From NCBI GenBank assembly GCA_937900185.1, contig CALCCW010000229.1, forward strand, positions 1 to 53,830: a stretch of 53,830 nt of DNA, given 5' to 3'. The stretch is from an uncultured candidate division Zixibacteria bacterium (GTDB lineage: Bacteria; Zixibacteria; MSB-5A5; GN15; FEB-12). Under the pieces are notes generated by a model that was not told the origin of the DNA, did not search any database, and saw only the letters and a list, made by a program, of their open reading frames with translations. Shown one piece after another: positions 2,636 to 32,565 of this stretch; within the stretch, counting starts at the first letter, position 1, and each line of letters opens with the position of its first letter. A program made the translations under genes and the position numbers.

Positions 2636-3070
2636 TTATATAAGACCATTAATAGTCCTATATTGTTTTTTATCTATATACTTATTATATTCTGCTATTA
2701 CATCATCGCTAGACCTATCATCTATAAATGATGCGAAACCAAAATACTTAACGGCTAAATAATATTTCCATGCACGTCTTTTTCTCAACCACCGTAATAC
2801 TGATATTGAGTCTTTGTCAATAATCTTTTTCATATTACGGTAAAACCTATCATCAGCTATCTTTTTATTATAGAGTGTACGTTCAACTTTATAAGATGTG
2901 CGTAAATCTATTTTAGCTGGAGTAATATCTAAACCTAAAACTTTATTAGGTAATGCTTTACCAAACCAAGCTAATATTTTAAATTTATAATAATCACGCA
3001 ACTCTTTAGACGATGCTTTTTCAACATAATTACTTGTTTCTAAACCATATTTATTTATTATCTTTTTCAT
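2636..3070 (-). CDS. DUF1353-like protein, diverged paralog of 3051..3470
   Basis: Shares KYGLE..., ...IADD/ADL..., and a W/R-rich C-terminal ...YY.AVKYFG / WFVKEFGG pattern with its neighbour. The track start at 3103 is TTG; the first ATG is at 3070. Confidence 0.4.
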   Translation of the reverse strand: MKKIINKYGLETSNYVEKASSKELRDYYKFKILAWFGKALPNKVLGLDITPAKIDLRTSYKVERTLYNKKIADDRFYRNMKKIIDKDSISVLRWLRKRRAWKYYLAVKYFGFASFIDDRSSDDVIAEYNKYIDKKQYRTINGLI

Positions 3071-3561: not shown

Positions 3562-3887
3562 TTATCTGTCCCAGTAAACGATTCCCTATCCACACTACCG
3601 AGATAAGTAATACTCTGTTTAACGTGGCTTGTAATCTTTGATTTATAGGTATGACCGTATTTAGTTTCAATCCAACCGAGTCGGACATTCACCACGTTTA
3701 CATTTTGAGCGAACGGCACAGGTATAGAAGCATCAAGCCCTAATACCCTGCATTCAATATCCCTTGCCTCACCTTGACGCAATGCGGTGCACCCCGTAAG
3801 CATCAATACCAGCATTACCATAACAATAAGCATTGTAATTTTCAGGCTCTTGTTTCGTGCTTCAATTTCCGCTGTTGTCTTTTCCAT
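3558..3887 (-). CDS. Lipoprotein (signal peptide with lipobox L-T-G-C)
   Basis: ...ITMLIVMVMLVLMLTGCTAL. The track start at 3893 is TTG; ATG 3887 is preceded by GGGGGATTGATT. Confidence 0.65.
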   Translation of the reverse strand: MEKTTAEIEARNKSLKITMLIVMVMLVLMLTGCTALRQGEARDIECRVLGLDASIPVPFAQNVNVVNVRLGWIETKYGHTYKSKITSHVKQSITYLGSVDRESFTGTDK

Positions 3888-3889
3888 AA

Positions 3890-4093
3890 TCAATCCCCCG
3901 TTAATATTTTATTTCTGTCGAATGTGGAGCATTCGCACACCCTGCAAACGGCACATTCGTTTTCCAGATTCAGGCAGTCTTCTTTGTCTCTATACTTACA
4001 CTTTCCACGATACTCACTAAATGCAGTCTCAAATGCAACGCAATCTCCGCAGTCTTGCTGTAAGTGACATAATGTTGTTAATTCAGTGCTCAT
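3890..4093 (-). CDS. Small Cys-rich protein
   Basis: 67 aa with 9 Cys, including CGDC and CAVCRVCEC. Confidence 0.5.
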   Translation of the reverse strand: MSTELTTLCHLQQDCGDCVAFETAFSEYRGKCKYRDKEDCLNLENECAVCRVCECSTFDRNKILTGD

Positions 4094-4340
4094 TGCATAC
4101 CTCTTTTACAAGTTTTTGTATTGTTGTGAAACAATCCTGTCTGTGATTTGCTATCGCTAATTCAATCATATTATTTAATTCACCATCTGATTTGATGCGT
4201 GAGGTATTCTGCTTCAGCTCTTGTAAATCCTTATCTAAAGGTGCAACCATTAATCTCATGATTAGATACATCAATCCTGCGATTGCGGTAATAGTAGTTA
4301 TCGCAAGTGCGGCGGCTGAAAGTGCTATTGTCCAATTCAT
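4083..4340 (-). CDS. N-terminally anchored membrane protein with coiled-coil ectodomain (holin/i-spanin-like, putative)
   Basis: N-terminal TM segment WTIALSAAALAITTITAIAGLMYLIM followed by a charged helical region. Confidence 0.4.
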   Translation of the reverse strand: MNWTIALSAAALAITTITAIAGLMYLIMRLMVAPLDKDLQELKQNTSRIKSDGELNNMIELAIANHRQDCFTTIQKLVKEVCNEH

Positions 4341-20076: not shown

Positions 20077-20090
20077 CAATCTCCGTATTG
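20077..20090 (-). promoter_or_regulatory. Start-associated motif CAATACGGAGATTG, 4 nt before ATG 20072
   Basis: Minus-strand read: CAATACGGAGATTGTAAAATG. Confidence 0.65.
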
Positions 20091-25280: not shown

Positions 25281-25294
25281 CAATCTCCGTATTG
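25281..25294 (-). promoter_or_regulatory. Start-associated motif CAATACGGAGATTG, 3 nt before ATG 25277
   Basis: Minus-strand read: CAATACGGAGATTGACAATG. It overlaps the CCA end of the tRNA-like element. Confidence 0.65.
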
Positions 25295-25410
25295 GTGGGA
25301 GCGGTAGGGATTTGCACCCTACATGGTTATTCTATGAGTACCCTAGTTACTTAGTTCACCAGCCAGCAACCTCTTCTCTTGTTAACGTCTACCTATTCCG
25401 CCACACTCCC
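25293..25410 (-). ncRNA. 118-nt tRNA-like element: tRNA-Leu-like acceptor stem, D-arm, T-arm and encoded CCA, but a non-canonical 62-nt core
   Basis: 5' GGGAGUG pairs with CGCUCCC, followed by A-CCA. UGGCGGAAUAGGUAGACG closely resembles the bacterial tRNA-Leu D-arm. The T-arm is GUAGGG-UGCAAAU-CCCUAC. No 5-bp/7-nt anticodon arm could be found between positions 27 and 88. Confidence 0.45.
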
Positions 25411-25448
25411 GTATTGTTATTTATATCTCTTATATGTTATTTTAACTT

Positions 25449-25817
25449 TCATTGTTTAATCTCCTTAACGTGTATCGTCCCAACTACTTCGCACTTTGCT
25501 ATATCAATCCACTTCTGATATAACGGCATACCGGTTTTCCATTCTTTTGTATTTTCGTTTTTAATCCACCAACGAGATTCCTCTTCGTTCCATAATACAG
25601 AGAATATCCTTCCCATTCTGCCTTTGATTTTATCGCCATCGGAAATCAGAGTTCCATTACAGTCTTTAATGCCCGTGCAAAATTCAATAACTCGCCCTTT
25701 TGTGTGCGGACGATTATTATGCCAGAGATTACCTGAGGTATCAATTTTCATTATGTCTTTTTCATAATTAGAATGATATTCACACCATACTCTGAATCTT
25801 AATCTATCGTTATTCAT
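25449..25817 (-). CDS. YopX-family protein
   Basis: RFRVW..., FCTGIKDCNGTLISDGDKI, VVGTIH; typical YopX pattern. Confidence 0.65.
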   Translation of the reverse strand: MNNDRLRFRVWCEYHSNYEKDIMKIDTSGNLWHNNRPHTKGRVIEFCTGIKDCNGTLISDGDKIKGRMGRIFSVLWNEEESRWWIKNENTKEWKTGMPLYQKWIDIAKCEVVGTIHVKEIKQ

Positions 25818-25821
25818 CGCT

Positions 25822-25835
25822 CAATCTCCGTATTA
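25822..25835 (-). promoter_or_regulatory. Start-associated motif TAATACGGAGATTG, 4 nt before ATG 25817
   Basis: Minus-strand read: TAATACGGAGATTGAGCGATG. Confidence 0.65.
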
Positions 25836-26499: not shown

Positions 26500-26513
26500 C
26501 AATCTCCGTATTA
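26500..26513 (-). promoter_or_regulatory. Start-associated motif TAATACGGAGATTG, 3 nt before ATG 26496
   Basis: Minus-strand read: TAATACGGAGATTGATTATG. Confidence 0.65.
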
Positions 26514-27909: not shown

Positions 27910-27923
27910 TAATCTCCGTATTG
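27910..27923 (-). promoter_or_regulatory. Start-associated motif CAATACGGAGATTA, 3 nt before ATG 27906
   Basis: Minus-strand read: CAATACGGAGATTAAAAATG. It starts right after the SNF2 stop codon. Confidence 0.65.
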
Positions 27924-32253: not shown

Positions 32254-32565
32254 ATGCTAAATAAGATTTTATCGGATAAGCGAGTTTTAACAGATGAAAC
32301 AAACTTTAATATTGGACAATACGGGGATTGTAAAATGATAAATATCCCAGCTAGTTATTTATGTAAGCTGTGGAAAAAGGTTTACAATAAACCGTGTCCA
32401 TTACATTATTACATAGCAGATGCTTTACCAATACTGAGATTGGAGCATAAACATATTTGGGCTGAACCAGATTTAAGTGATTATAATTTAGATATTTTTA
32501 GTAATTGGAAACCAGATTTAAGTGATTATATATTTGAGCCGGATGTAGATAAATTTGAACCTTAA
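32254..32565 (+). CDS. Small protein, DUF3820-like (putative)
   Basis: FNIGQYGDCKMINIPASYLCKLW resembles the DUF3820 fGKYkG..l.diP..YL.W pattern. ATG 32254 has an AAGGAG RBS; the track start TTG 32176 lies in the operator array. Confidence 0.4.
   Translation: MLNKILSDKRVLTDETNFNIGQYGDCKMINIPASYLCKLWKKVYNKPCPLHYYIADALPILRLEHKHIWAEPDLSDYNLDIFSNWKPDLSDYIFEPDVDKFEP

Follow-up and report, generated by a model that had tools for sequence, protein, structure and literature searches.

On the minus strand of a 53,830-nt contig from a marine metagenome (CALCCW010000229.1 of assembly GCA_937900185.1, candidate division Zixibacteria; this whole stretch is called the window), positions 25410 to 25293 hold a 118-nt element with the upper half of a leucine tRNA (tRNA-Leu), no anticodon arm, and an arm of its own at the variable-arm position. 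This is a conserved RNA structure, whose helices covary among relatives with dissimilar middles, and it is linked to tRNA genes in position and strand. With these relatives, the element apparently represents a large family of phage RNAs that has not been described. The reading that we favor, at a probability of roughly 0.55, is that of a non-decoding, modular mimic of tRNA-Leu, in which a constant module of elbow and acceptor stem is joined to a variable arm.

A covarying tRNA-Leu scaffold without an anticodon arm

Read from 25410 to 25293, the element is GGGAGUG-UG-GCGGAAUAGGUAGACGU-(62 nt)-GUAGGG-UGCAAAU-CCCUAC-CGCUCCC-A-CCA. The architecture proposed in the original prediction, which had been made from the letters alone, was borne out letter by letter (a 7-bp closing stem with one G-U pair, CAATAC on the 5' side, and an overlap with the start motif of the next gene). 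The parts are as follows.

25404-25410, minus strand: 5' strand of the closing (acceptor-like) stem, GGGAGUG, nt 1-7; 7/7 pairs with 25297-25303, one of them a U6-G67 wobble
25402-25403, minus strand: connector U8 G9, with no variation in 79 diverse members
25385-25401, minus strand: D arm of the tRNA-Leu type, GCGGAAUAGGUAGACGU, with A14, A15, G18 and G19 present
25372-25384, minus strand: purine-rich, single-stranded linker of 13 nt, UAACAAGAGAAGA, in place of the anticodon arm; unpaired in the minimum free energy (MFE) and centroid folds
25325-25371, minus strand: long irregular hairpin, nt 40-86, at the class II variable-arm position; a prediction of the MFE and centroid folds
25323-25324, minus strand: AU dinucleotide 5' of the T stem; its U (T88) is invariant in alignment A3 (see below)
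25304-25322, minus strand: T arm with the 6-bp stem GUAGGG/CCCUAC, the loop UGCAAAU and G at position 55, read from the sequence
25297-25303, minus strand: 3' strand of the closing stem, CGCUCCC, pairing with nt 1-7
25293-25296, minus strand: A at the discriminator position, then CCA, both present in the window copy

The same design is found widely in phages. The pattern GGCGGAATAGGTAGAC-N50-80-GGGTGCAAATCCC, composed of the D arm, a spacer of 50-80 nt and the T arm, yields at least 120 exact hits in IMG/VR and 20 in bacterial and archaeal contigs taken at one genome per species, the latter mostly from Bacillota (mostly Levilactobacillus, Lacticaseibacillus, Lactiplantibacillus, Listeria, Paenibacillus and Clostridia, plus a few metagenome-assembled genomes). 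The architecture of the window copy is common to all the pattern matches listed. It was found in more than 150 distinct phage or prophage sequences, with hosts among Lactobacillaceae, Leuconostoc, Listeria, Paenibacillus and Clostridia and with some environmental phages, and 43 cultured-phage records carry a family member. When the T arm alone was used for scanning, most of the structured cases proved to have this D arm upstream. One copy, in OP650937.1 (Hujiaoplasma phage zrk29-2, 37988-38108), shows 100% identity over 121 nt to the version of an L. plantarum prophage, which is surprising for a phage assigned to a Tenericutes host.

The comparison of these copies reveals extensive compensatory change. 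Among 100 unique, unfiltered copies, 55 different closing stems occur, with all seven pairs formed in 87 copies and six of seven in 9. In an alignment of 79 members with dissimilar middles (A3), filtered for at least six of seven closing-stem pairs, 98.4% of the cells of the three scaffold helices are paired; sliding the partners by one to three columns lowers this value to 36-44%. Changes on both sides affect 11 of the 16 pairs, in 301 cells, and the observed covariation was reached in none of 500 shuffles. The covarying pairs are all seven of the closing stem, although its G7-C66 is nearly fixed, pair 11-24 of the D stem (C-G or U-A, and A-U in Leuconostoc phage LN34), and the three outer pairs of the T stem, where the sixth pair appears as G-C, A-U or C-G. 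The stems of the 79 members are therefore not drifting at random, an outcome that would have spoken against the predicted structure, and the predicted 6-bp T stem with its UGC loop is present in the sequence of the window copy as well as supported by this covarying sixth pair.

When the window is searched with R1, a covariance model made from A3, one copy is returned, with 83.4 bits; this copy is itself a member of the seed. Members from outside the seed score 56-81 bits, including the 83-nt member of locus L173, those of about 215 nt in phage LP65 and L174, and the one of Leuconostoc phage LN34. The window copy has the features that define the family under this model, namely a closing stem of at least 7 bp that varies in sequence and is followed by UG, a D arm of the form G[CU]GGAAUAGGUAGAC[GA]N, and a T arm in which AU precedes a 6-bp NNNGGG stem with the loop UGCAAAU. 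At loci L205, L214, L220, L250 and L197, a conserved region ending in CCGGGGTGCAAATCCCGGCACC is preceded by CCGGCGAGCCTTTCGGCTCCCC...CCACCATAATTC; this looks like another structured RNA, unrelated to the family and with only the hairpin loop in common.

The relation to tRNA-Leu is most evident in the 5' part of the window copy. Its D region had been described as tRNA-Leu-like, and indeed the first 25 nt are identical to those of 29 genuine phage tRNA-Leu(UAA) genes in IMG/VR, which are 83-89 nt long and have a normal anticodon arm, a variable arm and a UUCAAGU T loop. The D stem of the window copy is closed by a G10-U pair. Throughout the family U8, A14, A15, G18G19, the U before the T stem (U48 position), U54, C56 and A58 are retained. 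By analogy with tRNA-Leu (PMC9976931), that invariant U would occupy position 48 and act as the Levitt partner of A15. Between the closing stem and that of co-resident tRNA-Leu genes, there is no consistent match outside the window copy.

Judged by its sequence, the element derives from tRNA-Leu and yet is not a tRNA. With the anticodon arm replaced by a variable structured arm, codons cannot be decoded. The canonical 5-bp T stem and T-Psi-C (U55) are not present; instead, there is a stem of 6 bp, which gives a 13-bp acceptor/T stack, and the loop UGCAAAU with G55. When this loop is exchanged in the search pattern (TGCAAAT replaced with T[ACT]C[AG]AAT), 4 matches are obtained versus at least 120, and all of the 76 real tRNAs in the loci selected for the family have TTC-type T loops. 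Linkers comparable to that of the window copy occur in relatives, commonly with about 7-16 nt, and members of 83 nt have no room for an anticodon arm, since they hold only an 8-nt linker and a 7-bp hairpin between the D and T arms.

The loop UGCAAAU occurs also in what appear to be complete phage tRNA genes, mostly with the anticodon CAU, which were met in the T-arm scan (L193, L194, L215, L246, L169/L217 and L171). G55 is thus not exclusive to the family without an anticodon. Several of these genes lack G18G19 in the D loop. In addition, an odd tRNA-Tyr(GUA)-like gene lies between a ROOL RNA and the 83-nt element of L173 (1992-2075, minus strand). Its T loop is UGCAAAU as well, its D loop lacks GG, and it scores 37.9 bits with the tRNA model of Rfam and is not called by ARAGORN.

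Programs for tRNA detection agree with the absence of a cloverleaf. ARAGORN reports no tRNA and no transfer-messenger RNA (tmRNA) in the entire window, also with introns allowed or with a lowered threshold. Rfam 15 gives nothing at the element at the gathering score, and at E<=10 the local region yields a chance FMN match only, with no tRNA match, even a weak one. In the mitochondrial mode ARAGORN produced spurious calls, which were disregarded. The claim that an anticodon arm is missing thus holds, both with ARAGORN (with or without introns) and with the tRNA model of Rfam at E<=10, and the folds show the 13-nt linker and the irregular hairpin where that arm would be. No conventional cloverleaf was found.

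These data also discriminate between the origins that had been considered, an intron-containing tRNA, a decayed tRNA or a tRNA mimic. A decayed tRNA-Leu pseudogene or an intron-interrupted tRNA-Leu, specific to the phage of the window, would account for the first 25 nt of a real tRNA-Leu(UAA), for the encoded ACCA and for a middle no stabler than shuffles. In bacteria, the introns of tRNA genes belong to group I and measure about 200 nt at least, much more than the 62 nt of the middle. Moreover, intron-aware ARAGORN was blank for the window copy and the 79 relatives, the 83-nt members have no anticodon stem-loop that could be assembled, and over 66 lineages under purifying selection maintain, through compensatory changes, this design without an anticodon and its T-loop variant. 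Both origins are, in consequence, barely credible, and the mimic is the option favored by the evidence.

The exchangeable arm

In contrast to the scaffold, the middles are highly diverse. They range from 31 to about 165 nt and form 87 BLAST classes among 139 unique copies, with no k-mer in common beyond what is found in shuffles. Nonetheless, the position of the arm is constrained. In 38 of the 79 members (48%), compared with 12% of shuffled middles, exactly 2 nt (AU) separate the end of the last helix from the T stem, which places this helix at the class II variable-arm site and not at the anticodon-arm site. In a subfamily that we call type A, the arm is structured and some covariation is seen in the arm itself. 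For the window copy, the MFE and centroid folds predict an arm that closes 2 nt before the T stem, with support by analogy with the relatives, and this arm falls in none of the arm classes found.

By inspection, homologous arms are found under different closing stems (L002/L006, L065/L106, L033/L133, L094/L138 and LP65/L174), and at least 12 unrelated arms occur with one closing stem, GUGCUUG, in L. plantarum phages. In four loci (L230, L258, L260 and L147), a canonical T-arm-like hairpin (GGGTTCGATTCCC) lies within the variable arm, which gives the impression of a piece of a second tRNA inside it.

This modularity raises the alternative that the arm is the sole effector, as an aptamer, a protein-binding RNA or a small RNA, and that the tRNA part serves excision and nuclease protection. 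The large number of arm classes, structured and of very different lengths, one arm class under differing closing stems, and the placement of the element in tRNA arrays would all be expected from such a scaffold. However, any tRNA frame would do for that purpose, yet the Leu-type D arm, UGCAAAU and the 6-bp T stem always occur together. The arm of the 83-nt members is a simple 7-bp hairpin. In addition to the lack of a k-mer common to the arms, a search for antisense targets of the middle within the window returned two 11-mers only, about the number expected by chance. We consider this explanation unlikely.

Ends, genomic setting and proposed function

The ends of the element were compared with one copy per distinct closing stem (n = 66 lineages). 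The discriminator position is A in 52% of them, G is rare at positions 73-75, and U is frequent at -1 (50%) and at 74 (48%). CCA is encoded in 3 of the 66 lineages, and close relatives of one of these three lack it. Also, the closing stem is extended by at least 2 bp beyond 7 bp in 30 lineages, whereas random re-pairing of leaders and trailers gives 13.7 ± 3.0 (maximum 26 in 2000 trials) and such an extension is found in just 3 of 211 real tRNAs of these loci. Many members would then probably be without a free NCCA end.

The window copy, together with that of L071, is the tRNA-like extreme of the family. In the window copy, position -1 is unpaired with 73, so that a 7-bp acceptor stem is followed by a single-stranded discriminator and CCA. 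The encoded CCA that had been pointed out is thus present in this copy, but it is not a trait of the family, and its CA belongs to CAATAC, the first half of the start motif of the next gene. Its presence may be incidental, because this CAATAC recurs and is found directly 5' of the element too. The motif in question is an extended ribosome-binding sequence, YAATACGGAGATTG, with the Shine-Dalgarno sequence GGAG embedded, which lies a few nt upstream of start codons and has 62 matches in the window at up to 3 mismatches versus 4.7 expected. It may be a ribosome-binding site alone, or a processing or promoter signal as well. The features around the ends of the element, and examples of the motif, are listed here.

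25281-25294, minus strand: gene-start (extended ribosome-binding) motif CAATACGGAGATTG of the downstream open reading frame (ORF), an exact match, overlapping the CCA
25411-25416, minus strand: CAATAC abutting nt 1 on the 5' side, a direct repeat of the 3' CAATAC (25289-25294)
25281-25294, 25822-25835, 26500-26513, 27910-27923 and 20077-20090, minus strand: start-motif examples from the motif scan
32317-32330 and 32429-32442, plus strand: start-motif examples from the motif scan

In the window, the element is flanked by a YopX-like ORF (25449-25817) and a Cys-rich ORF of no assigned family and shares their strand, which agrees with the location between genes on the coding strand given in the original prediction. 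ParB, a helicase of the SNF2 type and a DNA polymerase of family A are encoded in the gene block around it. BLASTN with 1.1 kb around the element and TBLASTN with the DNA polymerase of the window gave no match among cultured phages, which means that the phage of the window has no sequenced relative there.

In the family, there is an association with tRNA genes. A real tRNA lies within 500 nt of 26 of the 100 unique copies and is co-oriented in all 26. In phages 8014-B2 and LP65, the element is found between tRNA-Arg(UCU) and tRNA-Arg(CCU) inside tRNA arrays. For the LP65 region (L143, NC_006565.1, 2209-4820), the strand of the tRNAs in GenBank is opposite to that of ARAGORN and Rfam, and orf80 of this phage (L143 2294-2434), which overlaps the 5' half of the 218-nt element, is probably spurious. 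In L033, two family members stand in tandem on the minus strand (2808-2921 and 2923-3031, 1 nt apart by coordinates), as also in L163; the two members of L033 differ in closing stem and arm, an arrangement like that of genes in a tRNA array. ROOL RNA (Rfam RF03087, 123-305 bits) is present in the tRNA arrays or prophage regions of the element in L143 (LP65, 3687-4261), L133 (263-937) and L173 (2067-2606). A DUF3800-VII RNA (Rfam RF02967, 62.6 bits) was found about 650 nt from the element in L094 (1719-1808, minus strand).

Apart from tRNA genes, the surroundings are not conserved. No conserved neighbor protein emerged when the flanking ORFs were clustered and 147 of them were scanned against Pfam, and the flanking proteins differ by lineage (YopX, HNH endonucleases, helicases, recombinases, replication proteins, DUF1492 and terminases). 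Direct repeats of at least 6 nt (6-9) flank the element in 9 of 59 lineages, compared with about 2 for shifted windows, for example in L145, L151, L135, L240 and, as CAATAC (25411-25416 / 25289-25294), in the window; they could be the trace of an insertion (target-site duplication). Together with the lack of synteny and with identical scaffolds around unrelated middles in phages of one host, these repeats could suggest a feature of the DNA, in which a small mobile cassette would use the conserved halves for recombination or insertion and the stems would be a by-product. Nonetheless, a mobile element would be expected to keep the sequence of its terminal repeats, whereas here the 55 closing stems stay complementary through double changes, and the G-U pairs among these changes make sense only in RNA. 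The strict strand bias relative to tRNAs is likewise not expected from a DNA site, and this possibility is very improbable.

A further alternative concerns action in cis, that is, a punctuation or stability element for cleavage by RNase P or RNase Z, or for the block of exonucleases, in phage mRNAs, without any role in trans. In every case the element is intergenic and lies on the coding strand, the window copy abuts the ribosome-binding motif of the next gene, U is enriched at -1 and 74, and a terminator-like hairpin lies within 250 nt downstream in 23 of 62 lineages compared with upstream in 7 of 62. The stems often longer than 7 bp and the absent CCA fit as well, because a free, aminoacylatable end would not be needed. 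However, the distance to the next ORF is very variable and the neighbors are unrelated; a processing signal needs no covarying arm of 31 to 165 nt; and both the invariant Leu-type D loop and the tandem copies would be superfluous. On balance, a role in cis by itself is quite unlikely.

Under the favored reading, the tRNA-Leu mimic would be transcribed on the coding strand, together with neighbor genes or tRNA arrays. The constant module (closing stem, U8 G9, Leu-type D arm, U, and 6-bp T stem with UGCAAAU) would fold as the upper half of a tRNA with a D-loop/T-loop elbow. This module would confer stability, possibly excision, and would serve as a handle for a tRNA-binding partner, for which RNase P, RNase Z, leucyl-tRNA synthetase (LeuRS), another reader of the elbow or a host tRNA-targeting factor are candidates. 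The exchangeable arm would then provide a function or specificity proper to each lineage. Phage tRNA genes counter host tRNA-cleaving defenses, and a decoy for tRNA-directed defenses of the host is an attractive possibility, in view of recent phage tRNA work. The roles suggested in the original prediction, as a decoy for anticodon nucleases or as a substrate for RNase P or the CCA-adding enzyme, would likewise be candidates. More tentatively, we propose a new modular class of phage non-coding RNA, whose tRNA-Leu handle, with G55 and the 13-bp stack, would dock on a conserved machinery that binds tRNA, or on a host defense that targets it, while the rapidly swapped arm would give lineage specificity; such an RNA would be small, tmRNA-like or decoy-like, mobile between genomes, and widespread in phages of lactic acid bacteria and of other hosts.

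LeuRS is a candidate reader because the enzyme from E. coli requires A73 and the tertiary contacts between D and T loops, and not the anticodon or the variable arm (PMC9976931). By sequence, the window copy has the identity set of this enzyme (A73, A15-U48, G18G19, U8-A14, U54-A58, G19-C56 and CCA), with the exception of G18-U55, given its G55.

Several observations weigh against the tRNA-Leu mimic and need to be considered. The replacement of U55 by G55 would disrupt a contact of LeuRS, since G18:U55 matters for leucylation (PMC9976931). Moreover, the stem extensions, the rarity of CCA and an A73 in just over half of the lineages argue against uniform ends of the tRNA type and, together with G55, against leucylation as a function common to the family. 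In addition, the search patterns themselves account for part of the invariance of the D and T loops, an effect that the T-arm scan and relaxed patterns reduced and did not remove. For the window copy, folding gives z = -0.76 for the whole element and z = -0.08 for the middle alone relative to shuffles, so that its long arm is a prediction; thermodynamics alone would not have flagged the element. Its arm is no better than shuffles, and no close relative was found in which covariation of the arm could be followed, as searches with its own closing stem in IMG/VR, with its 3' 26-mer in metagenomes and with the downstream protein returned genuine tRNA-Leu genes or nothing. Finally, we infer the transcript, its ends and its processing from the DNA.

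Relation to known tRNA-like RNAs

The family is absent from Rfam 15 and from the annotation inspected. In 19 related loci, Rfam at gathering and E-value thresholds recognizes true tRNAs, tmRNA, ROOL and DUF3800-VII only and never matches the element, which bears no annotated feature in the GenBank regions inspected or in the BLAST tables of the 43 cultured-phage records. A full-text literature search, including exact sequence strings, returned no description of the family, although it may be among the 10,006 unnamed candidates of PMC10690425, whose supplements lie beyond that search. This phage RNA class, missed by standard tRNA finders and Rfam, is carried by dozens of cultured Lactiplantibacillus, Leuconostoc and Lacticaseibacillus phages and by many uncultured ones, so that experimental systems are at hand in dairy and fermentation phages, with L. 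plantarum phages LP65, 8014-B2, Sha1 and phiJL-1 and Leuconostoc phage LN34 among the cultured carriers. For annotation, it implies that intergenic gaps and spurious small ORFs, such as orf80 of LP65, need to be re-annotated. More generally, the family could reveal uses of the tRNA elbow outside translation.

Compared with class II tRNA-Leu, the element shares the 7-bp acceptor stem, U8, an identical or nearly identical D arm, a hairpin at the variable-arm position and, in the window copy, A followed by CCA. In contrast, it lacks the anticodon stem-loop, its T stem has 6 instead of 5 bp, and G55 replaces U55. Also, the arm is far longer and variable, the stem of the relatives is often extended and without CCA, and tRNA detectors miss the element. 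A similar idea is found in minimalist tRNA-Leu constructs, made in the laboratory from acceptor, D and T regions, which without anticodon and variable arms are still LeuRS substrates if A73 and the D/T contacts are intact (Larkin et al. 2002, as summarized in PMC9976931). The natural elements differ from these in having G55, which should alter the G18:55 contact, A73 in about half of the cases and CCA in few.

The tRNA-like domain of tmRNA, an RNA found in some phages too, resembles the element in mimicking the upper half of a tRNA without an anticodon arm and in having the rest of the RNA attached between the D region and the T arm. According to Bessho et al. 2007, as cited in PMC3022190, this body points the way that the long variable arm takes in class II tRNAs. 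The likeness is one of design and not of membership. Unlike tmRNA, the element has an intact Leu-type D stem-loop and G3-C70 instead of G3-U70, and it is without pseudoknots, a tag reading frame or a resume codon. It is also much smaller, at 83 to about 218 nt, with a middle of 62 nt in the window, and the tmRNA models of ARAGORN and Rfam do not match it.

YrlA is a non-coding RNA, found also in phages, with a module that mimics the acceptor, D and T arms of tRNA. It has canonical T loops, and the RNA ends in a Ro-binding stem, with the acceptor closed by a loop (permuted), whereas the element ends in the acceptor-like stem; the YrlA model of Rfam gives no match to the element. The 'species 1 and 2' RNAs of phage T4 are small stable RNAs encoded amid the phage tRNA genes and matured with them. 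ROOL and GOLLD are large phage and prophage RNAs of unexplained function that likewise occur in clusters with tRNA genes (PMC5737381). Their size is 5 to 8 times that of the element, to which they have no relation in sequence or structure.

Mimicry of tRNA is, then, of a known kind, represented by tmRNA, YrlA and viral tRNA-like structures, and the family fails the defining tests of each of them. Its combination of a tRNA scaffold and a cargo makes it a natural instance of that design and, if the arm is the sole effector, it would be a counterpart of the engineered tRNA scaffolds.

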